32,000 nucleotides of DNA from an archaeon (GTDB taxonomy: Archaea; Iainarchaeota; Iainarchaeia; Iainarchaeales; 1-14-0-10-31-34): the NCBI GenBank assembly GCA_024277355.1, contig JAJRVL010000004.1, forward strand, positions 120,001 through 152,000, read 5' to 3'. Positions 1 through 28,600 of this stretch are shown in pieces. The notes under the pieces are model-generated. The model worked only from the letters and a program-made list of their open reading frames with translations. It did no database searches and was not told the DNA's origin. The stretch's first letter is position 1. Each line of letters opens with the position of its first letter. The translations under genes were made by a program, and so were the position numbers.

Positions 1-2387
1 GGAGTTGAGTCTGTTTTCATTTGAACTTCAATTGAAGCAGCTTCATAATTTGGTTCAACAAAAGTTCCTCCAAAAATTTCTTTTCCATCCGCATAACCTT
101 TTAAATCACATTTTCCGTCTCCGGTTTTATCCTGACAAACAAAAAACTGGAAAGTAGAATTATCCCAATTTTTTAAAATTATTCTTGGCTGAGCTGAAGA
201 AGAAAAAGATTCATAAGAAAAAGTCAATCCATTTTCTTTTGCATCAAGGAAATCAACTAAAACTGAAGTTCTAGGATAATAATTTAATGTTTTTATAGTG
301 CTTGGAATTTCACCGTGTTTTGTTCCATTTTCATCAAATACAATAATTGAAAAAAACCCTTTTTTACTTTTATCATATTCCTGTAACATAACTGAAAATT
401 GTTTGTCTGCTTTTGTTTCTGCTTTATCTAAATAAACTATATGTTCAGGAACTTTAGAACCTGGATTTCTTATTATTTTTTTTCCATCAACAGAAGCAAT
501 CTGCAAGTTTTTTTGTTTTCCGTCAGAAGTTTTTGGAGTTTCTGAAGAAATTACCGGAGAATCAAATAACAATGAATCACTTTTTCCAAAAAACTTGTTT
601 ATTCCGTTTTCACTAAAATCAATTATCCCAGTGTTTTCAGTTATTGGCTGAGGAAAAACTGCTCCAAACACACCATATATTATGTCTTTTAAATAATCAT
701 AATAATTAGTTGAATTTGAATCCTTAATAATTAAATTATATTTTTTTCCTTTAATTAATTCAACAGTAAAACGATCTTTTTTTGCTATATCAGGATTAAT
801 TACAATAATATCATTGTCTTCTTTTAATGCCTTAAAATCAATTATGTTTTCAAAGTTTTCTTTTGCAAAAACCTTGTAATTATCTTCTCCTAAAATTACA
901 GTTAAAGTAAATTTATTATCTGGTTTTGAAACAATTGTTTTAGCAGTATCTTTTGGAACAGTAATTTGAGTGTTTTCTGCAGAATTACTCCAAACCCATG
1001 CTTTAGTTGCAGTTGAATCAGGAATTTTAATTGTTATTTCTTCTCCTTGAGAAAATAAAACAGGCCAAGTATTTATTCCTTCAGAATCCACTCTTAAAGT
1101 AGTAAATGGAACAAAAACTTCTTTTCCAGTTGAATCTTCTACAATTGGAGTAACTGAAACTGAATCCATTGCATTAATTACTTCTTCTGGAATTAAAACA
1201 TCAATTTTTGCTGTCTGTTTTTTTATGTTAATTTTATTTCTTAAATCAATTACAGTATCAGAAGAAACAATAATTTTATCTGAAACCCAATCCTGCAATT
1301 CAGAGGAATTTGAAATTAATTTTAATTTATAAGAATTTTTTGGAACTTTACCTGAAAGCAAAGCAAAAGAATTCTGTGAAAGATAAATTGATTTTGCATT
1401 AATTGTATCATAAAAATCAAAAGTTAATTTTCCTTCATTTAAATAATCCATTACTTCTAAACCTAAATTTATTTTTAAATTAAATTCTTTTTCTTCATAA
1501 AGTTGTTTTGTTTTAACTTGTTTTAATAAATCATAACCATCTAAAATAGAAAATTCAATTGTGTTTGCCTGGCTTGCAATAACAGATTTCAGTATTTGTC
1601 TGTTGCTGATTATTAATTCAATCGAAGTTCTTTCAGGTACAAAAGAAAATTCTAATACAGGAGTAGTTTTATCAAAAGAATCTAAACCAAAAAAATAAAC
1701 AAATAAGGGAAGTCCTTCTAATTTATATAAAACAGGAGTTTTTGGATCCAAATTTTCTGTTTCAAAAGAATATTTTCCGTTTCCTAAACTTTTAGCTAAA
1801 GGAATTTCTTTCAGTGTATCTGTTTCATTATAAGTTATTGCTAAAGAAACAGTGTTATCTGAATTAACTGAAACTAATTCGACATCAACAATTGAACAAG
1901 AAGCAGTTCTATTTGATGCAGTTAATTCAATTGATGCATTTGAAAATAATCCTGTACCACAATCATATTCTATAAAAGGAAATTCTTTACTTTCCATAAA
2001 CCAGAAATAAGAAGGTTTGCTGACAGTTCCAATTGAAATTTTTGCAGCCTCAACTGAAGTTCCTATAAAAGAAGATCTAGCATTCTTTATTCCAATCCAA
2101 TAAGGAGAATATTCATTTCCATTAATTATCCTGTAAGTTCTCCCAACAGGAACATTTTCCAGAATTGTTTTTCCTGAATCAAAATAATATTTTTCTTTTG
2201 GGTTTGACTGAAAAGAAAGAGCAGAAACAGATGAATAATAATTGTTTAATAAAGTATCAGAAATTACTCCTGCACTCCAGTTAGAGTTAGCCTGAATTGC
2301 TCCTGAATTATCATAATAAAAGTTTTCTTCAGCTGAAACAAAAGAAAACAAAAAAATTAAAACCAAAAATAAAATTATTTTTTTCAT
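1..2387 (-). CDS. Secreted protein 'B2' (>795 aa); the C-terminus lies beyond the left window edge
   Basis: The minus-strand frame is open from ATG 2387..2385 to the window edge. I translated the 5' ~100 nt and the last 60 nt and found no stops. The supplied track lists no >=60-aa ORF anywhere in 1-2387, which fits one edge-truncated ORF. The N-terminus MKKIILFLVLIFLFSFVSAEE is a signal peptide. The start abuts the upstream stop (TAAATG), with GAGGGTG just upstream. Confidence 0.8.
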   Translation of the reverse strand, partial: MKKIILFLVLIFLFSFVSAEENFYYDNSGAIQANSNWSAGVISDTLLNNYYSSVSALSFQSNPKEKYYFDSGKTILENVPVGRTYRIINGNEYSPYWIGIKNARSSFIGTSVEAAKISIGTVSKPSYFWFMESKEFPFIEYDCGTGLFSNASIELTASNRTASCSIVDVELVSVNSDNTVSLAITYNETDTLKEIPLAKSLGNGKYSFETENLDPKTPVLYKLEGLPLFVYFFGLDSFDKTTPVLEFSFVPERTSIELIISNRQILKSVIASQANTIEFSILDGYDLLKQVKTKQLYEEKEFNLKINLGLEVMDYLNEGKLTFDFYDTINAKSIYLSQNSFALLSGKVPKNSYKLKLISNSSELQDWVSDKIIVSSDTVIDLRNKINIKKQTAKIDVLIPEEVINAMDSVSVTPIVEDSTGKEVFVPFTTLRVDSEGINTWPVLFSQGEEITIKIPDSTATKAWVWSNSAENTQITVPKDTAKTIVSKPDNKFTLTVILGEDNYKVFAKENFENIIDFKALKEDNDIIVINPDIAKKDRFTVELIKGKKYNLIIKDSNSTNYYDYLKDIIYGVFGAVFPQPITENTGIIDFSENGINKFFGKSDSLLFDSPVISSETPKTSDGKQKNLQIASVDGKKIIRNPGSKVPEHIVYLDKAETKADKQFSVMLQEYDKSKKGFFSIIVFDENGTKHGEIPSTIKTLNYYPRTSVLVDFLDAKENGLTFSYESFSSSAQPRIILKNWDNSTFQFFVCQDKTGDGKCDLKGYADGKEIFGGTFVEPNYEAASIEVQMKTDST

Positions 2388-2996
2388 TTAACACACCCTC
2401 TCTAATTCAGCTAAAACTGTTTCATTTTCTAATTTTGTTTCAGAAAAATCAGTTGTATCTGCAATAAAAGAATTTAAATTTGCTTTTTCTTCAAAGCCTA
2501 AATGAACTTCATTAAAAGCAAAAATTAATTCATTTGTTTTCATTAGTTTTTCATTTAATTTAATTGTGTTTTCTCCAATTAACTTTAATTCAGTTTTATT
2601 TGAACACAAATTACTTCCGGTTATTGTTTTTGAATTTAATTTATCTGAAATAATTTTTGTTTTTAAAGCTAAATTTAATTCATCAACTAACAATAAATGA
2701 ACTTCAACAAAATCAGTTAATGCTTCAGTGTCTTTTGTTTGCGTCATTTTAGAAAGAGAATTCTGAAATGAACTTAAATCATCATTTAATGCTTCCAAAT
2801 TAGATTCAGAGAATTCTATTTCAGTTGAATTATTTAATAAAAATGCAGAATTAACTTTATTTTTTGTCCATAAACCATTAATTTCTTTTATTCCGTCAGA
2901 AAAAGTCATTGATTGTGTTTGCTGATTAAAAAACAAAATATAGACAGCAGTTAAAACAATTATTACTCCTATTCCTGCAATAATTTTTGAATTCAT
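2388..2996 (-). CDS. Membrane-anchored helical protein 'A2' (202 aa), paralog of 4009..4614
   Basis: Track ORF. It has a single N-terminal TM helix (IIAGIGVIIVLTAVYILFF) and is otherwise charged and helical. It shares AVY..FFN, F..G..EIN.LW.K, an internal LCS and a C-terminal VC with 4009..4614. Its ATG overlaps the upstream stop (TAATG). Confidence 0.8.
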   Translation of the reverse strand: MNSKIIAGIGVIIVLTAVYILFFNQQTQSMTFSDGIKEINGLWTKNKVNSAFLLNNSTEIEFSESNLEALNDDLSSFQNSLSKMTQTKDTEALTDFVEVHLLLVDELNLALKTKIISDKLNSKTITGSNLCSNKTELKLIGENTIKLNEKLMKTNELIFAFNEVHLGFEEKANLNSFIADTTDFSETKLENETVLAELERVC

Positions 2997-4009
2997 TAAT
3001 TCACTCCCATAATCTTATTATATTGAATTAAAATTGAATTATTAATTTGTTTTTGCAATTCAGTTAAATTTGTTGGCACTGGTTGATCCTTTTTGTCATC
3101 AGGTTTGTCTTCTATTTTGTCAGCTGGTTTAACTTCTGCTTTTCCACCAACCAAAGCAGGATCTTTTGGAGTTAAGGCAACAGTAAAATAATATCTTAAT
3201 TTTTTATAATATTCTTTTGGATTACCTTCTTTTGCAGAAATTCTTATGTCTGCAATTCCATCACAATCAAAAAACTTACTACTAGGCATATAAATATCTG
3301 TTATACTGCTGCATAAGTCTTTCCCTGTTTCTGCATTAGTTAACCTAAATACTGCTTTTTCTTCTTTATAATTAACTGAATCAAGATTAAATTTAACTAC
3401 TGTATTAGAAATTAAATCTGAATTAATTTTTTCTTTTTCATATTCAAAATAAAATTCATGAAAAATGTTTCTTGAATCATTTGATTTAATAAATGAACTA
3501 AATCTTTTAGCAAGATATTTTTTTACTAAATTATCTGTGAATTTAGTCGTTATTTCTATTTTAACATCATTAAAAGGCGGCTTTGCATTTGAAACGTTTA
3601 TTGATAAAGTAATTAAAGGGTCAGTTAAACCCAAACCAAAAATTTTATCTTTAAAAGCACATTCTTGTTCATAAGGAAAAGAATCAGAATCACTTAAATT
3701 AAGTGTTTTTCCAAAATAATTACTGCATTTTAATTGAACTTCTTTTTTTAAATTAGAATCAAAAAAAGAATCCTCTAAAGCAATATAAACATTAACTGGA
3801 ATACTGAAATTAGTTGACGCAGCATAATACCCTTCGCCAATTTCAACTTTGATTTTTCCTTTATAATCTTCTAAAGGAATTTCACAAAAAGAATTAAAAG
3901 GAATATTTCCTGCAAAAACATTTTCTGATTGTTTAATACAATTAACTTCTTCAGCTGAAACAAAAGACAAAATCAAAACAAAAATTAAAGCAAATAAAAG
4001 TTTTTTCAT
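2996..4009 (-). CDS. Secreted protein 'B1' (337 aa from ATG 4009; the track ORF extends to a TTG at 4015)
   Basis: Signal peptide MKKLLFALIFVLILSFVSAEE. 21 nt of signal-peptide coding sequence (tcttttgtttcagctgaagaa) are identical to B2. It is Cys-containing, beta-rich by composition and has no C-terminal anchor. A GGGGG run lies 6-7 nt upstream of the ATG, and the ATG overlaps the upstream stop (TAATG). Confidence 0.8.
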   Translation of the reverse strand: MKKLLFALIFVLILSFVSAEEVNCIKQSENVFAGNIPFNSFCEIPLEDYKGKIKVEIGEGYYAASTNFSIPVNVYIALEDSFFDSNLKKEVQLKCSNYFGKTLNLSDSDSFPYEQECAFKDKIFGLGLTDPLITLSINVSNAKPPFNDVKIEITTKFTDNLVKKYLAKRFSSFIKSNDSRNIFHEFYFEYEKEKINSDLISNTVVKFNLDSVNYKEEKAVFRLTNAETGKDLCSSITDIYMPSSKFFDCDGIADIRISAKEGNPKEYYKKLRYYFTVALTPKDPALVGGKAEVKPADKIEDKPDDKKDQPVPTNLTELQKQINNSILIQYNKIMGVN

Positions 4010-4614
4010 TAACAAACCCCCTTTAAGGTTAAAACCATTGATTCTAAATCTGAAAGTTTTTGTTCAGAAGAAACTTCTAATGAAAGAACGCTTAAACCTG
4101 ATTTTTCTGCTTCGTCAGGGTAAGCTTCAGAAAAAGCTAAAACTTTTTCATTAAATGATTCAGCTGAATTTTTCTGCAATACAAGGTTTTCCTGTAAATC
4201 CTGTACTTTATTTGAATAAGAACATAAAACATCAAAATTATAGTTATTTGATTCAAAAAAATCAATTGAAACAAAATTTTCTTTCTGCAGTAAAGCATTG
4301 TTAATTAAATGAATTTGAGTTTCTAATAACAAATCTAATTTTTCTTTGTCTTCTGAATTTTCTTTTTCTTTTAAGGATTCCTTAAAATCAGTTAAATCTG
4401 ATTTTAATTCAATTAATTTTGTTTTTTCTGCTGCATAAACTTTTAATGGAGAAATTAAATATTCAGTTTTTAATCCTTGTTTTTCCCATAAAGAATTAAT
4501 TTCAGTTAAACCTGAATTAAAAGAAAAAGTTTCCTGGGTTTCATTAAAAAAAACAAAATAAACTGCAATAACTGCAATTAATGTAATTCCAATTAAAAAA
4601 TAATTTTTATTCAA
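4009..4614 (-). CDS. Membrane-anchored helical protein 'A1' (201 aa), apparent TTG start
   Basis: Track ORF. The first codon is TTG (rc of caa at 4612-4614), preceded by AGGGAT, and no in-frame ATG lies nearby. It has an N-terminal TM helix (FLIGITLIAVIAVYFVFF) and is a paralog of 2388..2996. Confidence 0.75.
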   Translation of the reverse strand: MNKNYFLIGITLIAVIAVYFVFFNETQETFSFNSGLTEINSLWEKQGLKTEYLISPLKVYAAEKTKLIELKSDLTDFKESLKEKENSEDKEKLDLLLETQIHLINNALLQKENFVSIDFFESNNYNFDVLCSYSNKVQDLQENLVLQKNSAESFNEKVLAFSEAYPDEAEKSGLSVLSLEVSSEQKLSDLESMVLTLKGVC

Positions 4615-5209: not shown

Positions 5210-5695
5210 ATGGCAAAAAAAGATTTAAAATCCTTAAAGCCAAAAGGATTTATTGACGAAATAAGAGAAATTAAAAGAGAGCTAAGAGTTTACAACAGAG
5301 AAAAAGCAGATTATTATAAAACATTAAATAAAAACCCAAAACATTTTGAATTAAACCGGTATTCAAGCAGTGCAAATATTGCATTAAACAGAGCAAAAAA
5401 AACAGCTGAAACTGCATTAAGAAGAATGACTCAGTCAAGACACAAAATAGAATCAGAACAAAAAAATAAAGTTGAAGAATTATTAAAAGAAATTAACACA
5501 AACATTAAAGAAAGAAATAAAAGAAGAACAAGAGAAGTTTTTGAAAAAGAAGGATTAGAAAAAGTAAGACAAATTAAAAGAAAAAATGCAGAAGGAAAAT
5601 TCAGGAAAGTCTGGAAAACTAAAAGCGCTTATGGTTTAGGATTGCATTTAATTGGAAGAATGAAATCAGCTTCCATAAGAAAAAGAAGACCTTAA
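5210..5695 (+). CDS. Highly basic Lys/Arg-rich protein (161 aa), function unknown
   Basis: Track ORF. Its ATG directly follows the nitroreductase TAA. It is a paralog of 5733..6185 (shared KNP...L..[HY].S..N[IV]AL..A.K.AE core and a C-terminal HGL/YGLGLH patch). Confidence 0.7.
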   Translation: MAKKDLKSLKPKGFIDEIREIKRELRVYNREKADYYKTLNKNPKHFELNRYSSSANIALNRAKKTAETALRRMTQSRHKIESEQKNKVEELLKEINTNIKERNKRRTREVFEKEGLEKVRQIKRKNAEGKFRKVWKTKSAYGLGLHLIGRMKSASIRKRRP

Positions 5696-5732: not shown

Positions 5733-6185
5733 ATGACTTGGAAGCAGGATAAAAAAAAACTTGAAAAATTCATGCAGGTTTATGATTACAGAAGAATAAA
5801 GTTAGCTGACGAAAAACAAGAAAAAAATCCTGATAAAATAAAATTAAAACAGCATAATTCTGTTTCAAATGTTGCTTTAAGGCAGGCAGTAAAATTTGCA
5901 GAAGAAATGAAACAAAAATTAAAAAATCCTGTTTATTTTGAAAATAACCAAAAAATTAAAACTGAATTGCTTAGATTTTTTGCTAAAATAAAAGGACTTG
6001 AATTAATTCATGCACAAAAAACAGGAAGAAGTAAAATAAAATCAATAAGACAAAAACAAAAAATTGGATTAAAAAGATTTAAAGAAATAAGAAAAATAAA
6101 AAAAACACACGGATTGTTTCCTCATTCGCTTAAAGATAAAAAACCGCAAAGAAGAACCAGAATAATAATAAAATTTCCAAAATAA
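5733..6185 (+). CDS. Highly basic Lys/Arg-rich protein (150 aa), paralog of 5210..5695
   Basis: Track ORF, with the same conserved core as 5210..5695. Confidence 0.7.
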   Translation: MTWKQDKKKLEKFMQVYDYRRIKLADEKQEKNPDKIKLKQHNSVSNVALRQAVKFAEEMKQKLKNPVYFENNQKIKTELLRFFAKIKGLELIHAQKTGRSKIKSIRQKQKIGLKRFKEIRKIKKTHGLFPHSLKDKKPQRRTRIIIKFPK

Positions 6186-14100: not shown

Positions 14101-14481
14101 TTACCTGTTTTTTTTAAATGATTCAACTTTATCTGTTCCGTAAATGTCTGTCATTTCTTTTAATACAAAAAACCCTTTAAGGAAACAGGCAGCAGTTAAA
14201 ATTCTCAGGAAATTGCTTAAATAAAACCAATAACCTAACGGCCCATAAACATATTCTCTTGAAAATTCAAACACTTTGTAAAGTAAATCAAGAAAAATAT
14301 TTATTGCAAAACTTGCACACATAAAAGCAGAAGCAATTAAAATCCATTTAACAAAATAACGAAATTTTCCTGAAGTAAATCTTTTATAGGCAATAAAGCT
14401 TATTGTTAAAGCTGAAATAATTAAAACAATAGCCAGAATTCCTTCAAGTAAAAGAATATGTTCTAGTAATCCAAAACTCAT
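14101..14481 (-). CDS. Small 3-TM membrane protein (126 aa), cassette 1, third gene
   Basis: Track ORF with an ATGA overlap to the upstream gene and GAGGGA upstream. It has three hydrophobic helices and a cytosolic tail LKEMTDIYGT. It is a paralog of 14478..14828, 21428..21751 and 21111..21428. Confidence 0.8.
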   Translation of the reverse strand: MSFGLLEHILLLEGILAIVLIISALTISFIAYKRFTSGKFRYFVKWILIASAFMCASFAINIFLDLLYKVFEFSREYVYGPLGYWFYLSNFLRILTAACFLKGFFVLKEMTDIYGTDKVESFKKNR

Positions 14482-14828
14482 TTTATTCCCTCTTTTGAAG
14501 CAAAACCATATTCTTTTGACATTTCATTTAAAATTAATCCTGCTTTAAGAAAAGCAATTCCTGTTAAAATTGCTATGCCTGAACGGACTAAGTCAAGAAT
14601 TAAGTCTATTTCTTCTGCTACTCCAACAGCATTTATGTAATGAATTACAGTCGAAGCAATTACATGAAATAAAGCTAAAGTTGCTGTTATAATTACCCAT
14701 TTAATAAAAGTTTTGTAATGTCCTAAAACAAATTTTTTACTTATATTAATTGCCCATAAAATAGCCACAGCAACAATAAGAATTACTACTGCAGAAAAGC
14801 CAATCAAAGCAAAGCCCATAGTATTCAT
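14478..14828 (-). CDS. Small 3-TM membrane protein (116 aa), cassette 1, second gene
   Basis: Track ORF with an ATGA overlap to the upstream gene and GAGGTGG upstream. It has three TM helices and the tail LNEMSKEYGF. Confidence 0.8.
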   Translation of the reverse strand: MNTMGFALIGFSAVVILIVAVAILWAINISKKFVLGHYKTFIKWVIITATLALFHVIASTVIHYINAVGVAEEIDLILDLVRSGIAILTGIAFLKAGLILNEMSKEYGFASKEGIK

Positions 14829-15385
14829 TTATCCACCTCTAAAACATTATCACAAAACTGAGAAATTTGTGCAATTATTTCTTTGTCTTCTTTTTTATCT
14901 AAAGCAATAATTACTCCGCTTAATCCCCATACTCTTAATTTTGTAATCAGGAAATGAAAAAACTTTGAAATCCTCGCAGAATCATTATGTATAAGTAAAG
15001 CTGAGAGTGAATCAAAATATACTAATCTGTTTTTTACATCAATTGATTGAGTTACCTGATTTAATGCAATTCCTAAGTCAGTTAAATTTCTTGGAGATTC
15101 AAGGAACATTACGTTGCTTTCTTTTGCAGGGTTTCTATTAGCTGTTTTTGTAATCATATCAACAAAGAAAATCTTTTTTGTTTCAATTTTAGTTTGTTCT
15201 AAAGAAGAAACCAAACTTAAATAAGGCTTGTTTATTGTAACATAAATCGGAACTAAATGTTTTTTTTCAATTAAAGTTTTAAAAAACTCAGTATTGCTTT
15301 GAGAATAATTTCCCGGATTAAATACAGCTATCAAAACAAATTCTTTTTGCAGTTTCTGCAAAGCTAAATCTAAATTTTTTATCAT
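14825..15385 (-). CDS. KaiC/RecA-fold-like protein lacking a Walker A loop (186 aa from ATG 15385; the track starts at TTG 15388), cassette 1, first gene
   Basis: Alternating strand/helix pattern with IYVTINKP, IFFVD, LESPRNLTDLGIAL, VYFDSLSALL and VIIALDKK, resembling COG0467/DUF835-type domains. The expected GxxxxGK[ST] position reads FNPGNYSQS. It aligns end to end with 21748..22305. Confidence 0.75.
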   Translation of the reverse strand: MIKNLDLALQKLQKEFVLIAVFNPGNYSQSNTEFFKTLIEKKHLVPIYVTINKPYLSLVSSLEQTKIETKKIFFVDMITKTANRNPAKESNVMFLESPRNLTDLGIALNQVTQSIDVKNRLVYFDSLSALLIHNDSARISKFFHFLITKLRVWGLSGVIIALDKKEDKEIIAQISQFCDNVLEVDK

Positions 15386-15406
15386 CAAAACAATAAAGGA
15401 AATTAG

Positions 15407-18074: not shown

Positions 18075-19190
18075 ATGAAAGTAAACGGAAAACATTTCAG
18101 AAGCATTTGGCTTGAAGGAAAAAAAATTAAAGTAATTGACCAGAGAAATCTTCCTCATAAATTTGAAATCGAAGAATTAACTAATTTAGAGGAAGTTATT
18201 ACTGCAATAAAAGACATGCATGTAAGAGGCGCTCCATTAATTGGAGCAACAGCTGGTTTTGGAATGTATTTAGCAGTAAAAAAAGCAGAAGAAAAAAAAT
18301 CTGAGGAAATAATTGAAGAATCAGCAAAACAGTTAATTCAAGCAAGACCTACTGCAGTTGACTTAAAATGGACAGTAGAAAAACAACTGAAAGAAATTAA
18401 AAAAGGAAATTCATTTAAAGAAAAAAAAGAAATTGCTTTTAAAACCGCAAAAAAGATTACTGATAATTCAGCTGAACAATGCAGAAAAATCGGGGAATTT
18501 GGAGTTAAGTTAATTAAAGAAATTTCAGAAAAAAAGAAAGCAAAAACAGTTAATATTCTTACACATTGTAACGCAGGATGGCTGGCTTGCGTTGATTTTG
18601 GAACTGCAACTGCCCCTATTTATAAAGCACAAAAAAATGGAATTAAAATTCATGTCTGGGTTGATGAAACAAGACCAAGATTACAAGGAATGCTTACTTC
18701 ATGGGAATTAATGCAGCAAAAAATACCTCATACAATTATTGCTGATAATACTGGAGGCCATTTAATGCAGAAAGGATTAGTTGATTTATGTATTACTGGA
18801 GCAGATAGAGTTGCATTAAATGGAGATGCAGCAAATAAAATTGGAACTTATCTGAAAGCTTTAGCTGCAAAAGATAATGAAATTCCATTTTATGTTGCTT
18901 TGCCTTCTTCTACTTTTGATTTAAATTTAGAAAACGGAAAAAACATTCCAATTGAAGAAAGAAATGAAAATGAAATAAAATTTATTAAAGGATTAAATAA
19001 AGAAAAAATAACTGAAGTTTTAATTGCTCCTGAAAAAAGTTCAGCTAGAAATTTTGGTTTTGATGTAACTCCTGCAAGACTGATTGCCGGATTAATTACT
19101 GAAAAAGGAATCTGCAAACTAGATAAAAAAAGCATTTTAAAATTATTCCCTGAATTCAAAAAAAGATTAATTAATGATTTAAATGAGTGA
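18075..19190 (+). CDS. mtnA: Methylthioribose-1-phosphate isomerase-type protein (eIF-2B alpha/beta/delta-related family, 371 aa)
   Basis: Motifs IDQRNLPH, VRGAPLIGATAGFG, THCNAG and GADRVALNGDAANKIGTY match the MtnA pattern. I cannot exclude a ribose-1,5-bisphosphate isomerase role, which belongs to the same family. Confidence 0.8.
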   Translation: MKVNGKHFRSIWLEGKKIKVIDQRNLPHKFEIEELTNLEEVITAIKDMHVRGAPLIGATAGFGMYLAVKKAEEKKSEEIIEESAKQLIQARPTAVDLKWTVEKQLKEIKKGNSFKEKKEIAFKTAKKITDNSAEQCRKIGEFGVKLIKEISEKKKAKTVNILTHCNAGWLACVDFGTATAPIYKAQKNGIKIHVWVDETRPRLQGMLTSWELMQQKIPHTIIADNTGGHLMQKGLVDLCITGADRVALNGDAANKIGTYLKALAAKDNEIPFYVALPSSTFDLNLENGKNIPIEERNENEIKFIKGLNKEKITEVLIAPEKSSARNFGFDVTPARLIAGLITEKGICKLDKKSILKLFPEFKKRLINDLNE

Positions 19191-20346
19191 AGAATCCATT
19201 AAATTTCATTGTAAATTAATTAAAGGAAATTCTCCTGAAAAAATAAAGAAATTAAATCAATGGAGAAACAAACTTTTTTCTTTGAATTTAATCGGCGCAT
19301 ATTCTGATGGAATTGGCTTTGGTAATTTAAGCGAAAAAACAAAAAAAGGATTTATTGTTTCAGGAACTGCAACAGGAACAATAAAAGAATTAAAAGCAAA
19401 ACATTATGCTGAAGTAACTGGATTTAATTTAAATGAAAATTCTTTGGTTTGTAGAGGAAAAATCAAGGCTTCAAGTGAATCATTAACTCATGCAGCAGCA
19501 TATTCTTCAAGCAAAAAAATTAATGCAGTAATTCATGTTCATTCACTTAAAATGTGGAATGCATTAAAAGACAAAGTTCCAACAACAAAAAAAGGAATTT
19601 TATATGGTACCATTGAAATGGCAGAAGAAATCAAAAGATTAATGAAACAAAAAAAAATAATGCAGAAAAAAATTATTGTAATGAAAGGCCATAAAAAAGG
19701 AATAATTTGTTTTGGAAAAGATTTAGATGAAGCAGGAAATATTCTGCTTAATTATTTGAATGGAATTAATTCAGCTGAATTCCCAAAAAATTTAGTTAAA
19801 TTTCTGAAAGAAGAAAAATTAAAGTTAATTAAAAAAATAGCTAAAGGGCATTCAAGTGAAATTTTTTTAGTTAAAAAAAGAAAAAAAGAATTTGCTTTGA
19901 AAATAGAAAAAGTTAAGTCAACAAGAAATAAAATGGCTGAAAGAGAAACAGAAAATTTAATTAAAGCTAATTCTGTTAAAGTTGGACCGTTAATTTATGG
20001 TTTTGACTTAAAAAAAAGAATTATTTTAATGGAATTTATTAAAGGAAAAACTTTTAGAGAATGGCTTTTTGGATTAAAGAAAAATAAAAAAAACAAATTA
20101 ATTCTAAAAAAATTCATTAAAGAATTATTGCTTCATGCTGAAAAATTAGATGAAATTGGATTAGACCACGGCCAGTTAGCAGGAAGAGGAGTAAATATTT
20201 TAGTTAAAAGAAATAAACCTGTAATAATTGATTTTGAAAAAGCTTCATTAAACAGAAAAGTTCACAATCAAACAGTATTAGAATCTTTTTTGTTTAAAAA
20301 CCCTAATTCTATGATAACAAAAAAAGTAAAAGAAATTTTAAGTTAA
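19183..20346 (+). CDS. Two-domain fusion: class II aldolase/adducin-like N-domain plus protein-kinase-like (Bud32/RIO/APH-type) C-domain (387 aa)
   Basis: N-domain: GFGNLSEK..GFIVSGTATG, SSESLTHAAAY, NAVIHVHS and the late MKGHKKG..FG. C-domain: FALKIEK (beta3 Lys), ILMEFIKG hinge, HGQLAGRGVNILV catalytic-loop equivalent and IIDFEKA (DFG equivalent). It overlaps mtnA by 8 nt. Confidence 0.6.
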   Translation: MSEESIKFHCKLIKGNSPEKIKKLNQWRNKLFSLNLIGAYSDGIGFGNLSEKTKKGFIVSGTATGTIKELKAKHYAEVTGFNLNENSLVCRGKIKASSESLTHAAAYSSSKKINAVIHVHSLKMWNALKDKVPTTKKGILYGTIEMAEEIKRLMKQKKIMQKKIIVMKGHKKGIICFGKDLDEAGNILLNYLNGINSAEFPKNLVKFLKEEKLKLIKKIAKGHSSEIFLVKKRKKEFALKIEKVKSTRNKMAERETENLIKANSVKVGPLIYGFDLKKRIILMEFIKGKTFREWLFGLKKNKKNKLILKKFIKELLLHAEKLDEIGLDHGQLAGRGVNILVKRNKPVIIDFEKASLNRKVHNQTVLESFLFKNPNSMITKKVKEILS

Positions 20347-21110: not shown

Positions 21111-21428
21111 TTACTCATTAAATCCATATTGTCTTGCAAATAACAATACTTCTATTGCAGTAATAATAAAGAAAAAACTAGCAATATAAGAAATCCATGC
21201 ACTAATTACTAATACAGGAATAGAAGAAAAATCATAAATAAACGAAATAAAATTAAATAAATGCAAAGAAAAAAACATTAATGAAGTTAAAAAAATCCAT
21301 CGCGTAATTGCCTTTAATTCAGTTGAATTAAATTTTAATGAACTTTGAAAAGAAACAACAACAGCAATTAAAATTAAAATCATGCTTGAAACATTAAGCA
21401 ATGAAGTAAAAGATAATTCTAATACCAT
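21111..21428 (-). CDS. Small 3-TM membrane protein (105 aa), cassette 2, third gene
   Basis: Track ORF with a TAATG overlap to the upstream gene, three TM helices and the tail LLFARQYGFNE. Confidence 0.8.
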   Translation of the reverse strand: MVLELSFTSLLNVSSMILILIAVVVSFQSSLKFNSTELKAITRWIFLTSLMFFSLHLFNFISFIYDFSSIPVLVISAWISYIASFFFIITAIEVLLFARQYGFNE

Positions 21429-21751
21429 TAAAACAACCTTTTATTTTTCATTCCAAATTTTTCTGAAAACCTTAATGCTTCAAATGAAGTTAAAATTAAG
21501 CCAATTGCAGTTGAAATAACAAAAAAAGAACGAATACCATAAATTAATTCAAGTTCATAATTCAAATAAACCATTATTAAAATAAAAAATTGACCTGAAA
21601 CAAAAATTAATAAAGAATAAAAAAAATGCCTTAAAACATTCTTTAATTTTCCTTCATTAAATCTACTCAATGCTCCAAAAAACAACGAAACAGTTAAAAA
21701 AGAAATAATAAAACTTATAAAACTTGAAGTAAACTCAAAGCCTATATTCAT
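21428..21751 (-). CDS. Small 3-TM membrane protein (107 aa), cassette 2, second gene
   Basis: Track ORF with an ATGA overlap to the upstream gene and GAGGT upstream. It has three TM helices and the tail LRFSEKFGMKNKRLF. Confidence 0.8.
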   Translation of the reverse strand: MNIGFEFTSSFISFIISFLTVSLFFGALSRFNEGKLKNVLRHFFYSLLIFVSGQFFILIMVYLNYELELIYGIRSFFVISTAIGLILTSFEALRFSEKFGMKNKRLF

Positions 21752-22305
21752 TTTTTTACCTCAATTATTTTGTCGCAGAATTGTGAAACCTGTGCAATTA
21801 AATTTTCATCAACATTTTTCTGCAAAGAAATTAAAACTCCTTTAATTTTCCATTCCCTCATTTTTCCTGTTAAAAAATGCGCAAACTTTGAAACACTTTT
21901 TGACTGATTATAAATTAATAAAGTGCTTAAAGAATCAAAGAAAATAAATCTGTCTTCTTTTTGTTTCATTGAATTAAATGCTTCACCTAAAGCAATACCT
22001 AATTCAGTTAAACTGTTAGGAGAATTAATAAACAAACAATTTGGAACTTCTTTTGCTTCCCCTGAAATAGTTAAAGTAATTGCATCAATAAAAAAAATGT
22101 TTTTTGTATTAATTTTATTTTTTTTTAGTACTTCATTTAAGCTTTCAAAAGGCCTGTTAACAGTAACATAAATTCCTTTTTCTTTAAATTTATTAGTTAA
22201 AATATCCAAAATTTTAAGGTTTGTCGCAAAATATTTTTTTTCATCAGACAAAATTAAAGCAATTTCCTTATCTGAAACCTTTGATAACTCTTTTTCTAAA
22301 TCCAT
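21748..22305 (-). CDS. KaiC/RecA-fold-like protein lacking a Walker A loop (185 aa), cassette 2, first gene
   Basis: It aligns over its full length with 14825..15385 (IYVTVNRP, IFFIDAIT, INSPNSLTELGIAL, IFFDSLSTLLIYN, SKFAHFL, IAQVSQFCD). The P-loop position reads LSDEKKYFA. An A/T-rich box lies ~30 nt upstream and there is no SD. Confidence 0.75.
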   Translation of the reverse strand: MDLEKELSKVSDKEIALILSDEKKYFATNLKILDILTNKFKEKGIYVTVNRPFESLNEVLKKNKINTKNIFFIDAITLTISGEAKEVPNCLFINSPNSLTELGIALGEAFNSMKQKEDRFIFFDSLSTLLIYNQSKSVSKFAHFLTGKMREWKIKGVLISLQKNVDENLIAQVSQFCDKIIEVKK

Positions 22306-24515: not shown

Positions 24516-25592
24516 TTATTTTCCTTTTAATGCAAAGAAACCTATTCCTAAAATTGCTGCAATAACAACAACAACTGCAAGAGTTCCCTGAATATTATTT
24601 AAACCAAAAAATCCAGTTGAAGGAACAACAGGAGGCGCATTGTCTTTTGTTTCTTCAGTAATAGTTGAAATACATTCTCCTGCATTACAAACAGAATCTT
24701 CTCCGCAAGAAGTTCCATCTAATTGATTATTATAATTACATACTCCTTCAGAACAAGAATCAATAGTGCATGGGTTTCCGTCATTGCAGTCAACATCTAA
24801 ACATAAATTATCTGTTCCTGTTCCAAGAGTTTCTTCTGAAGTTTCATCTTCTTTTGGTTCTTCAACAGAACAATCAACTAAAGAAAAATCTTTTTTTACT
24901 TTTAAGTATCCAGGCTTGTAAACTTCAAGTTTGTATTCAATTGCTTCAGTTAAATTAAAATCAAAAATCCCATTAATATCTGTTGTACCTGAAATTAAAG
25001 ATTTATTTTCTTTAAATACAACTACAGTAGTATTACTTGCAGGTTTTTTATTTGAAAGTTTAACTTCAACTAAAGCATTAGAATTAATGCATTTATTAGA
25101 AATGGTTACGCCAAGGCCTCCGCCACCTCCGCCTCCACCGCCGCCGCCAGAGCTTCCTCCGGAAGGACTTCCAGTATCAGCAGGTGCAGGACAGTCAGCC
25201 GCACAAGAAGAAGAATTTTCGCTTCCATTACATACTCCATCACCGCAAAAAGGATCAATAGTTAAAGCTAAATTTAATTCAGTTAAACCATTATTCATAA
25301 AAGTTGATTCAGCAACTTTTGTTGCATTAACAAAAAATTCAATTGTTTCTCCCTGATTAACTCCATCTGGATCAGAAACAAAAAATAAATCAGGAGTAAA
25401 ACCATAAGTTCCATCAATAGAATTAATTGAACCAAACTCAACTCCATCAATTTGAGCACTAATAGTTGCATTATTTGCAGGATTGTCGTTAATAGTTACT
25501 TGTCCATAAAATTGATGCGGCCATCCAACCGCAAAAACTGAACTCAATAAAAATACTGAAAAAATAATTAAAATAAAATAATTTAACTTCAT
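24516..25592 (-). CDS. Cell-surface protein with signal peptide, Cys-rich modules, poly-Gly linker and a C-terminal PGF-CTERM-like anchor (358 aa)
   Basis: Signal peptide FILIIFSVFLLSSVFA. CGDGVCNGSENSSSCAADCP module. An uninterrupted run of 11 Gly within a longer Gly/Ser linker. A CarboxypepD_reg-like stretch (GTTDINGIFDFNL..YKLEVYKPGY). A Cys-rich C.D.NPCT.D.C repeat. C-terminal PSTGFFGL plus hydrophobic helix plus KGK. GGGGGA lies 8 nt upstream of the ATG. Confidence 0.85.
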   Translation of the reverse strand: MKLNYFILIIFSVFLLSSVFAVGWPHQFYGQVTINDNPANNATISAQIDGVEFGSINSIDGTYGFTPDLFFVSDPDGVNQGETIEFFVNATKVAESTFMNNGLTELNLALTIDPFCGDGVCNGSENSSSCAADCPAPADTGSPSGGSSGGGGGGGGGGGLGVTISNKCINSNALVEVKLSNKKPASNTTVVVFKENKSLISGTTDINGIFDFNLTEAIEYKLEVYKPGYLKVKKDFSLVDCSVEEPKEDETSEETLGTGTDNLCLDVDCNDGNPCTIDSCSEGVCNYNNQLDGTSCGEDSVCNAGECISTITEETKDNAPPVVPSTGFFGLNNIQGTLAVVVVIAAILGIGFFALKGK

Positions 25593-25655
25593 ATATAGTC
25601 CCCCTTAATTAACTAATTAATATATTCAGTTTTTATGTAAAAAAGAATAAAAAGA

Positions 25656-25679
25656 GTGGGTTTTAGTCAAAAAACCCAC
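25656..25679 (-). terminator. Hairpin straddling the stop codon of the 1687-aa gene, followed by a T-rich tract
   Basis: GTGGGTTTT (25656-25664) pairs perfectly with AAAACCCAC (25671-25679). On the minus strand the hairpin is followed by TCTTTTTATTCTTTTTT. Confidence 0.45.
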
Positions 25680-28600
25680 AATTTGTTGTGTATGCATATG
25701 TGTTATTTCCGCTGGAATCAATCCAATAACCTGCTCCTGGATCCAAATTGGCATAGTAGTCAAACTCTGACCACAAACTAGTGTTTGGATCGCCATCAGT
25801 GTTATATAGTTCCCAATAAGACACTAATGAAGTCCAGCCTTTGTCAAGATATGAATCTCCTAAAGAATACAAAGCACATCCTGCTTCTTTTCCATTTCCT
25901 TCTGGACCATTATATCCTTCCTGGCCTTCTAATCCATAATATCCAATTAAGTTCCATCCGTCTTTTAGATCTCTACTTGGAGGAGTTACTGCTGGACTAA
26001 ACAAGCTTCCACCTAACAACAAAGTATCTGCTTCATAAGCTCTAATCCAATAACCCCATCCTGGAGTAATTGAATCTAAATTGCTTAATTCAGGTTGACC
26101 TGGATGATAGACATACCATGAATCAGTAAAAGCATCATAAGTCCAAACTGATTCAACGTTATCCATTACATCACTGAATACATCTTCTATGTCGTCATTG
26201 ATTAAAACAAACGGAACTGAAACTAAATTCCATTTTTTGTTTAATTCAATTTCAAAGGTTGTTCCTTCAACTTTGAATTTTTCGTCATCTATTGTTCCAA
26301 TGTTTCCTAATGCGTCTTCACAATAATACTTTAAGTTGTGTTCTGTTTCTTCAGTGAAATAGAACTGCAGTTCTTTTTGATTTATATGACACCATCCATC
26401 ATCAGTCATTGTTCCTTCATATGTTTCACAATAATTTTCTGTAGTGTCATCTGCATCTAATTCAACTTTAAAGTAAATTGTTTCATGGTCAACTGGATGA
26501 GGGTCAAGGTCATTACATGCCATTGTAATTGGAGTAAGTAAAGTTACTTTCCAGCATTCCATTTCATTTCCTTGTCCATTCCAGCAAAGTTCTCCTATTT
26601 CAGGATAATAAGCTGAATCCATTCCATTCCATGGGTCGCTTGGTTCTCCAACTGTTTTAACTGTTTCAGGTGCAGTTTCGTCAACAAAGACACATTGTTT
26701 GTGTACAGAAAACTTGTCTACATTGTCTGTTGCTTTGATTTCAATTAAATGACAAGATTCTTCTCCTGCATAAAATCCTTCTTCAGAATATTCAGTCCAG
26801 TTTCCTGTTCCTTCTATTCCTTGGCATAATTCTATGTCTCTGCAGTTTTCTTCTTCAACCAAAGAAACTTTGTATTCAATTAAAGCTAATCCTGATGGAT
26901 GTGGTTCTGGATCATATGCTTCTGCATAAATTGGAGTTTGAGTTGTAATCCATTCTAATCCTTCTTCAGTGAAATAAGGGTCACCAAACCCTTTTTTTAT
27001 TACTGGAGGTGTTTTGTCTACAACAAATTCTGAATAATCACTGCTTGTATTTCCTAGTGCATCCCAGCAGGTAATTTCTAATTGGTGTCTTGATTCTTCT
27101 GGGAAGTTAATAACAAATGGCGGAGTTATTCCTGTTTCTCCTCCGCTTGCATTACCATCAAGCAAGGCATAAGACCAATCACATATAACTGAATCTACTG
27201 GGTGAGGTGTTGGATCAACTGCATCAACATGGATTTCTGTTACTCCATCAATAATACATTCATCGCCTTCTTCTATTGCTGGGCAAGTTCCAATTTGTGG
27301 TCCTTCAACTGTTTTGGTTATTACTGGTGGAACTGTTTCAACTGTAAAGTATTCTAAGTCTATTTCATTTGCATTTCCTAATCCGTCTGTACAATAATAT
27401 TCAAGGTTATGATAAGAGTCTTCCTGGAAATTAAATTCCATTGCGCCTCTTTCTGTACAGCACCAGCCGTCTTGATTTGGTTCACAGTAATTTCCTGTTA
27501 TGTCTTCATAGCCATTATCTTCTAATGAAACTTTATAACATAAAGTTTCTCTTTCAACTGGGTGAGGATATGCATCTTCGCAAGACAAAAAGAAAGGTGT
27601 GTCAGTTGTAACAAATTCTTCTGTGTCTTCACATTGAGGTGCTGGAGCTTGTCCGCCTAAACCACAAGTTCCTGATTCAATTGCATAAGCTCTTGCACTT
27701 CCATCATATGCATCCCTAATCCACATTACTTCTGTTGGGAAATAAGTTTGTGGATCGCATTCCATGTCTTCAATTCTATAATTAGTGTTAACAAAAGTGT
27801 CAAGAATTGTTAGATCATTTCTGTGAACTCTTAAAGTTGTTTCAAATCCATTTGTTCCAAGATAAAAGTTTTCTCCGCCAATTGCTATTCCGCTATTTTG
27901 TACTAAATCTGGATGGATTGCTGAAAGGTCAACTGTTCCAAGGAATGTTCCGTCTGAAGCCATGTGAACCATTATTGATTGTACGTCATCACTATACCAA
28001 ATGCTGTCATCAGTTGCATCAAATGCAATTCCATCGTCCAAACAATAAGAAACATATTGTGATGGAACTGAAAATTGATATGTTGCAGCTCCTGTTACTG
28101 GATCAATTAAGTAAACTGGTCCTCCTCCTGACTGGTCACAGCCATAAGTTCCAGTCCAAAGCATACCTCTAGTCGCATCAAAAGATAATGCTCCTAAACC
28201 TGATTCAGCAATTCCTGTTGTTGGAATAACTTCATGACCTGAACCATCTGGTCTTATTTTGTATAAATTTGTACTGTCAATATAAGTGTAGTACAAGAAT
28301 TCTCCGTCAAAAGCTACTCCTACTCCTGTTCCGCTTCCTTCAGGGAAATTCATTGTAAATACTTCATCTCCAACTGCATAAAGAGAATCTACTGGAGGAG
28401 CTTGGTCTCCTTGTACTTCAACATTACAATCTTGTCCTAATTTTATTACATAAGGTTCTCCGATTTCTTTTGTTCCTTGTGGAGGAGTATTGTCAACAAA
28501 AGGACACTGCCATTGTAATAGTTCTTCGTTTCCTAGTTTGTCTATTGAATAAAATTCAATTACATGACATGATTCTTCTGCTTTAAAGAATTCTGTGAAA

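Follow-up and report, generated by a model that had tools for sequence, protein, structure and literature searches.

The DNA analysed here is a window of 32,000 nucleotides (G000:C2:120001-152000) from the 1.13-Mb genome of a member of the Iainarchaeota (DPANN), which has 28% GC and is 96% complete. At one end of the window four genes lie on the minus strand, A1, B1, A2 and B2, in which small helical proteins with a predicted membrane anchor (A) alternate with exported proteins (B). The order, strand and coordinates of the four open frames, as given in an original prediction made from the DNA letters, were confirmed, as were the junctions between them (TAATG, TAATG and TAAATG) and the three G-rich stretches ahead of the starts. 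B2 is cut by the edge of the window, and its missing C-terminus was recovered from the flanking contig, where the gene runs for a further 1,206 nucleotides and completes a protein of 1,197 amino acids. The features of the locus are as follows.

4009..4614, minus strand: A1, 201 amino acids, TTG start; membrane helix at about residues 6-23, then a helical bundle predicted to face outward; Cys131 and Cys201.
2996..4009, minus strand: B1, an exported protein of 337 amino acids; signal peptide at residues 1-19.
2388..2996, minus strand: A2, 202 amino acids, a paralogue of A1; Cys131 and Cys202.
1..2387, minus strand: B2, first 795 of 1,197 amino acids; the gene continues to G000:C2:118794.
1650..2195, minus strand: N-terminal beta domain of B2, about residues 65-246; conserved Cys pair; candidate partner of A2.
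6..509, minus strand: Ig-like domain of B2, about residues 627-794; holds a C.DK..DG.C module.
4009..4025, minus strand: overlap of A1 stop and B1 start (TAATG); G-rich ribosome-binding stretch within the final A1 codons.
2385..2404, minus strand: junction of A2 stop and B2 start (TAAATG); G-rich ribosome-binding stretch within the final A2 codons.
About C2:119061-119459, minus strand, outside the window: SLT domain of B2 (Pfam), residues 977-1109, with Glu994.
Outside the window, minus strand: Cys-helix tail motif of B2, residues 1171-1197.

A1 and A2 are paralogues, as had been noticed (27% identity over 189 amino acids, E 2e-17), and both carry the motif F..G..EIN.LW.K, Cys131 and a terminal Cys. 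A is an undescribed all-helical family. In Pfam and NCBIfam, no family was hit at E 0.01 by more than 2 of the 51 members, a PDB sequence search gave no match below E 0.02, and Foldseek with the A model gave no match at E 0.001, the best hits being generic helical bundles (Z 9.0); for A2, the ESM Atlas returned only unnamed clusters, at 0.81-0.84. The A2 model (predicted local distance difference test score, pLDDT, 90) consists of a membrane helix at residues 3-23 followed by a five-helix bundle at residues 32-45, 64-82, 88-121, 131-164 and 184-201. In 130 of 149 homologues the residues ahead of the N-terminal helix carry more positive charge than those behind it, and the bias is reversed in 3, which suggests that the N-terminus stays inside and the bundle faces outward; a lipoprotein-type signal replaces the membrane helix in 3 of 150. 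The two Cys residues are near-invariant, being kept in 150 (Cys131) and 147 (position of Cys202) of the best 150 representatives, and this conservation together with the order of the helices in the model suggests a Cys131-Cys202 disulfide. One of these representatives, P0146, is the only long fusion among them, with the A-family domain joined through a hydrophobic stretch to 360 further residues.

Profile matches to A occur in 71 of the 151 genomes examined in the phylum, and the family falls into 485 clusters at 50% identity; a genome scan with A1 alone gave no matches. A stricter E cut-off was used for two other phyla: in the one around a Micrarchaeota-labelled genome 0 of 121 genomes matched the profile, and in the one around a Woesearchaeota-labelled genome 2 of 151 did, both copies standing alone. 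The present genome has a third A copy of 175 amino acids (G000:C3:17385-17912; L094:2386-2913) that is not followed by a cargo gene. The next gene, with an rpS15-like gene nearby, is presumably a Bud32-like kinase, judged from its motifs. The same stand-alone arrangement was found in 12 genomes, whose copies form one clade in a quick tree (Shimodaira-Hasegawa-like approximate likelihood ratio 86; 45 of 90 branches in this tree are open).

The position of A ahead of an exported protein was then followed across the phylum in 98 A genes from 63 genomes, taken from the top and then from a lower part of the profile match list. A signal-bearing protein of at least 150 amino acids directly after A was counted as cargo. 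Outside the stand-alone clade, 72 of 86 A genes precede such a protein, mostly overlapping it or lying at most 11 nucleotides away, and inside the clade none of 12 does. The baseline in the present genome is 83 of 719 genes preceding an exported protein, with the signal sought in a window of 45, not 60, residues. Among the other 14 A genes, contig ends truncate 2, another A comes next after 1, about 4 probably have mis-set starts or have gaps of more than 400 nucleotides, and about 6 are truly alone. The layout recurs in 18 of 20 families of genomes examined, so that the adjacency proposed from this single locus stands; with the predicted outward orientation and the failure to match a known family, A has come through each way in which the original prediction could have failed. 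The complete order A1-B1-A2-B2 with an SLT domain in B2 is kept in all three same-genus genomes with a contiguous locus, and two further genomes have it in fragments. In the arrays, A genes take turns with B genes, and A copies are not clustered together.

The cargoes themselves are diverse, with 27 unrelated components among 59 proteins, and contain 6-58 Cys. A C-terminal membrane helix occurs in 0 of 56 complete cargoes vs 16 of 64 signal-bearing proteins of at least 300 amino acids in the present genome. A marker of one chromosomal neighbourhood was in view in 33 of 56 larger loci. On one side (25 loci) stand three conserved membrane-anchored beta-rich proteins with genes that we take to be CBS and MetK, and on the other (15 loci) is a gene presumed to be thioredoxin-reductase-like or XPD-like. 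In the present genome the three beta-rich proteins (G000:C2:111066-116121; L001:1-4122) are exported, have C-terminal membrane helices and measure 266, 590 and 829 amino acids; such proteins converge on the cassette in many families and are candidate components of a surface scaffold.

The similarity among A proteins was compared with that among their cargoes. Between families, the median score of A pairs was 37 bits where the cargoes are homologous (14 pairs) vs 16.5 bits otherwise (2,271 pairs), and the 8 pairs whose cargoes are homologous from the N-terminus, which come from two groups, were all at or above the 90th percentile of the rest. In genomes with several copies, the A that matches best is the one ahead of the homologous cargo in 50 of 52 comparisons if the B proteins are homologous at the N-terminus and in 13 of 25 if the homology is internal only; these comparisons are not independent, and six genomes from a single genus weigh most heavily in the first count. 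Paralogous A copies within one genome precede non-homologous B proteins in 19 of 20 pairs. As judged by sequence similarity, cargoes with a common N-terminal domain go with similar A copies, and this domain is a better candidate for docking to A than the tail motif described below.

No family had been recognised for the B proteins. B1 and B2 do not form one family, and in the part outside the window B2 carries a known domain. The completed B2 contains, in order, a signal peptide, a stalk of beta domains, an SLT lytic transglycosylase domain, which is well known, and a Cys-helix tail motif. The SLT domain scored 45.7 bits against Pfam PF01464 (cut-off 21.3; E 5.4e-12), and its catalytic Glu-Ser, the G..Q of motif II (G-L-M-Q) and the Tyr of motif III (Tyr-Asn) do not vary among the 11 aligned domains of these loci. 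The model of mature B2, built from 13 sequences, is a chain of beta domains followed by a helical domain (mean pLDDT 63; predicted template modelling score 0.32). Its residues 933-1121 matched MltF with Z 11.0 (root-mean-square deviation 3.3; 144 aligned), followed by goose lysozyme (10.5), a Neisseria-type lytic transglycosylase entry (10.4), MltC (10.3), MltE (9.6) and Slt70 (8.6), the scores of goose lysozyme and of a chitinase domain (8.4) being near those of the transglycosylases. The domain looks intact, and from its motifs lytic transglycosylase activity is predicted.

This is the only SLT domain in the genome, and the 96% complete assembly yielded no peptidoglycan glycosyltransferase; a single Mur-ligase-like match was found, as in two control archaea. 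For the stalk, Foldseek gave loose matches to multi-Ig adhesins and pilins, and the Ig-like domain at about residues 627-794 matched several Ig-like domains with Z 6-6.9. The C.DK..DG.C module in this domain is also present in SLT-less cargoes from the same family of genomes. The N-terminal domain gave Z 6.3-7.1 against flavivirus-type envelope domains in the whole-protein model (for envelope domain I, Z 7.1, root-mean-square deviation 3.6 and 105 aligned), a weak match, and had no Pfam S-layer match. The S-layer sandwich of Methanosarcina is reported to have a viral envelope fold (PMC5744192), and such S-layer tiles have been reported from several DPANN phyla (bioRxiv 2024.05.28.596244). The modelled N-terminal domain is thus possibly tile-like, which we regard as a lead, not a result.

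B1 has six Cys residues conserved in its family, a low-complexity linker and a conserved C-terminal amphipathic helix, and gave no match in Pfam, PDB or the ESM Atlas. Past the signal peptide, no homology between B1 and B2 was detected by BLASTP or by profile-profile comparison, in which B1 scored a probability of 0.6% against the B2 N-terminal domain and 19.8%, from the signal only, against the whole of B2; no N-terminal domain common to the two was detected. The signal peptides had been called nearly identical. The 21-nucleotide identity ending in SFVSAEE is real, with two occurrences in the genome, but the residues agree at only 11 of 21 positions, and the match is not conserved, because in all three same-genus genomes checked the longest stretch common to the two starts is only 9-10 nucleotides.

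Pfam domains were sought in 97 exported proteins of these loci. Ten carry a wall-cutting domain at E <=1e-4 and one more at E 0.002; SLT occurs in 8 of the ten, Amidase_2 in 1, Amidase_3 in 2 and M23 in 2, some of them combined. Subtilase (3), Lon-type (1) and phosphoesterase plus GDSL (1) domains were also found. Wall cutting is therefore a recurring but minority payload. Cargoes directly after A include Amidase_2 plus SLT (L090) and Amidase_3 (L075), and M23 plus SLT is found further along a cassette (L080); in all, SLT was detected in 41 of the 151 genomes of the phylum. One chain of 1,766 amino acids (L112:1278-6578), the start of which is lost at a contig end, combines M23, a GH3 glycosidase, the tail motif and Amidase_3. 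In one family (L204, L205, L208, L209 and L092; three of the five Pfam-scanned), a separate A copy precedes a 1,300-amino-acid subtilase with an I9 propeptide. Cargoes with a pilin-type signal follow one A subgroup in three families (L027:10700-12658, L114:5799-7898, L218:2872-4950 and L232:1222-2505).

The C-terminus of B2 consists of a Pro/Thr linker and a motif of 27 residues with the consensus C..C.TI.ECL.C.D.KF, which is common to otherwise unrelated cargoes. It was found in 52 of the 151 genomes of the phylum and in 0 of 151 genomes of the Woesearchaeota-centred phylum, usually on the last gene of the island. Its usual place on the last gene and its occurrence without A set the motif apart as a second, independent signal, which may serve oligomers or the conserved surface proteins encoded nearby. 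Its candidacy as the docking site of A was weakened, because only 30 of 65 motif matches lie within 10 kb of an A match. Outside the seed genomes 8 of 41 are near A, or 8 of 10 when only contigs that also carry an A are counted. Complex prediction for the A2 outer domain with the motif of B2 gave 0.02 twice, a value which, having no controls, is uninformative either way. The C-terminal helix of B1 was considered as a Cys-free version of the motif and dropped: the two are alike by eye but gave no profile score. On an unrelated cargo of genome G007 this helix was the best non-seed match of 1,315, at E 0.43.

The junctions bear on how tightly each pair is coupled. Of 415 co-oriented junctions in the genome, 16 have a spacing of -1 nucleotide (overlap) and 10 a spacing of 0, so three such junctions in a row indicate tight coupling, yet nothing exotic. 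Ahead of B1 and B2 the match to the anti-Shine-Dalgarno complement is 6 and 5 nucleotides, lengths reached by 40 and 156 of 677 genes, respectively; a promoter scan of the bacterial type found no excess over shuffled sequences. The final codons of the A genes had been described as doubling as Shine-Dalgarno sequences, so that the terminal Cys might be constrained at the RNA as well as the protein level. Within the genus this is plausible for the two to three codons ahead of the Cys, but it fails for the Cys itself, which is the last residue in only 32 of the best 150 representatives and is kept in stand-alone copies lacking the G-rich stretch. The terminal Cys is thus constrained at the protein level and not by the Shine-Dalgarno overlap.

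Our proposal is that the locus comprises two units of a variable cassette for surface cargo, with each cargo held at the cell surface by its cognate A, and we give this reading a probability of about 40%. A would insert with its N-terminus inside and present a disulfide-clamped helical bundle outside. B would be exported, lose its signal peptide and then be caught by its own A, most likely through the N-terminal domain of B. The stalk of beta domains would hold the enzyme of B2 away from the cell, and the transglycosylase would most likely cut the wall of touched bacteria, whether hosts, prey or dead cells; a bacterial wall is the suggested target because this genome shows no peptidoglycan polymerase. 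Lineages would exchange cargo modules but retain the layout with A first and the place on the chromosome. The wider version, a phylum-wide display system of paralogous adaptors, each specific to the N-terminal domain of its interchangeable cargo and encoded at a variable island of fixed position, is more doubtful, and we put it forward tentatively.

Several observations weigh against the holding of B by A. Contact between the two is inferred from gene context alone, and linked inheritance of neighbouring genes by itself would give the same co-variation. The cross-family pairing signal comes from two small groups, and in G006 and G007 the A genes are nearer to A1 though their cargoes share modules of the B2 type, so that 9 of 10 comparisons break the rule. 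The stand-alone clade of 12 A genes and the two stand-alone homologues in another phylum indicate that A can work without an adjacent cargo; conversely, exported cargoes with the tail motif lack a nearby A at 6 loci where both flanks are visible. The lack of an anchor in the cargo fits free secretion equally well, and four cargoes start with a class III-like (pilin-type) signal, from which self-anchoring is expected. Most of the 97 scanned cargoes have no recognisable domain, and in three cargo types the catalytic domain lies near the N-terminus, unlike the arrangement of B2 with the enzyme at the tip of a stalk.

Among the alternatives, the one we take most seriously, while considering it unlikely, casts A as a dedicated chaperone in the membrane, for folding or export, which binds B transiently after export and then releases it. 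Lipase foldases and CpaB have the same layout, with an N-terminal membrane helix, an outer domain and an adjacent gene for a secreted hydrolase (PMC4713064); the fold of A is all-helical, and the anchorless cargoes include hydrolases of several classes. However, no sequence or fold link to those families was found (a single one of the 51 members reaches the CpaB model, at the noise-level E of 0.006), and A follows the N-terminal rather than the catalytic domain of the cargo. One fold would also need to serve many unrelated folds, and the subtilase cargoes bring their own I9 propeptide. The possibility that A and B do not bind at all is a distinctly minority view in our estimate. The two would then be co-expressed, fast-evolving surface proteins of one island, with A acting alone as a spacer, receptor or adhesin and the order persisting by tandem duplication and translational coupling. 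Linkage explains the co-variation, and the stand-alone A copies, the tail-motif cargoes lacking A and the exceptions in G006 and G007 all suit this explanation, which sits less easily with arrays that alternate A and B rather than cluster A copies, and with an A-then-exported order with overlapping stop and start that recurs in 18 of 20 families despite mostly unrelated B proteins.

The remaining explanations are much weaker. Pairs of immunity protein and effector are generally small, adjacent, cognate and fast-evolving, and subtilase cargoes could harm the producer, so A might keep a hydrolase inactive near the producer surface; this is improbable, as A does not track the catalytic domain and an archaeon without a peptidoglycan polymerase needs no protection from SLT or amidase. 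A role as disulfide donor or shuttle for Cys-rich cargo would suit the two near-invariant Cys of A, the 6-58 Cys of the cargoes and the presumed thioredoxin-reductase-like gene that flanks many cassettes. We hold it to be very improbable: the Cys residues are 70 positions apart, not in a CXXC, the helix order of the model would bring them together at one end of the bundle as in a structural clamp, and for a general oxidase there would be no need of a separate copy for each cargo. That the locus is what remains of a provirus, with a lytic enzyme of the tail type, is scarcely credible. SLT domains are common in phage tails, and phage matches appeared among the B2 comparisons, but B2 has a signal peptide, the base composition is as in the flanks and the cassette site is common across families; A2 had no match in 50,697 phage records, and SLT in viral contigs gave only 3 short, weak matches.

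If such a phylum-wide display system exists, carrying the peptidoglycan-cutting SLT, two amidase classes and M23 in several lineages, some of the Iainarchaeota would have bacteria as their hosts or prey, in a phylum commonly portrayed as possibly free-living; a membrane partner coupled to enzymes that cut bacterial walls points to contact with bacteria. As an adaptor, A would represent a mode of archaeal surface anchoring that needs neither a C-terminal helix nor a lipid. The A family serves as a marker for variable exported cargo, mostly of unknown fold, across the phylum, and the SLT domain, the outer domain of A and the N-terminal domain of the cargo are small expressible parts.

Other genes in and around the window were also recorded. 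An FTR1 iron-permease gene (G000:C2:117920-118747; L001:5921-6748) lies between B2 and trmB and is not present in the same-genus L022, L023, L024 and L091. Two very basic, Lys/Arg-rich open reading frames with no Pfam match are located at 5210..5695 and 5733..6185 on the plus strand, and basic frames of varying sequence flank the cassette in the relatives L022, L024 and L037. At 14101..15388 and 21111..22305 on the minus strand there are two similar triplets, each of a KaiC-like/DUF7504 gene and two small overlapping frames without a Pfam match. The gene at 19183..20346 (plus strand), which follows genes for malic enzyme, two fumarase subunits and an IF-2B-family protein, fuses a class II aldolase domain to a RIO-like kinase domain and may be a methionine-salvage fusion. 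Finally, 24516..30726 on the minus strand encodes an exported protein of 1,687 amino acids with a weak Ig-like match, followed by a membrane-anchored protein of 358 amino acids with a carboxypeptidase-regulatory-like domain.

A search of the open-licence literature, supplements excluded, turned up neither the A family nor the tail motif nor the cassette. Large exported transglycosylases of DPANN archaea have been published for Woesearchaeota and Pacearchaeota (PMC8204110, PMC9723730, PMC10936187). B2 resembles this group (fam00969) in its DPANN host, signal peptide, large modular body, SLT/GH23-type domain and proposed action on bacterial walls, a likeness drawn from these features. The family has been called specific to Woesearchaeota and Pacearchaeota (PMC8204110), whereas the SLT proteins described here are from Iainarchaeota. 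Unlike its members of about 3,000 amino acids, B2 has 1,197, is coupled to an upstream A gene and bears the tail motif that is absent from the 151 genomes of the Woesearchaeota-centred phylum. With the family 1 lytic transglycosylases (Slt70, MltC, MltE and MltF; PF01464) B2 shares the Glu-Ser, G-L-M-Q and A/G-Y-N motifs and a lysozyme-like fold, but its SLT domain, of predicted activity, ends a long stalk of beta domains in an archaeon with no detected wall polymerase. Archaeal peptidoglycan hydrolases have been shown to kill bacteria in other lineages (PMC12352652), and large membrane-anchored proteins were noted in a Diapherotrites genome (PMC5905446).

The logic of an adjacent membrane-bound partner is known from bacterial foldases (PMC4713064). 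Like LipB/Lif and CpaB in that account, A has a predicted N-terminal membrane helix, an outer domain and a gene beside that of an exported protein; no Pfam or NCBIfam family, those of Lif and CpaB included, was hit by more than 2 of the 51 members, and neither Lif nor CpaB was among the fold matches listed. Unlike them, A is archaeal, has an invariant Cys pair and is one family for many unrelated cargoes. An archaeal parallel in arrangement is SlaA/SlaB of the Sulfolobales (PMC5744192), in which adjacent, co-transcribed genes encode a membrane-anchored protein and the anchorless exported one that it holds, the holding of B by A being the proposed counterpart. A was considered as an S-layer anchor of the SlaB type and set aside, since SlaB consists of beta sandwiches and a coiled coil with a C-terminal anchor, whereas the modelled A is all-helical with an N-terminal anchor. 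SlaA, in turn, is described as a conserved lattice protein, whereas the B proteins are variable and include enzymes.

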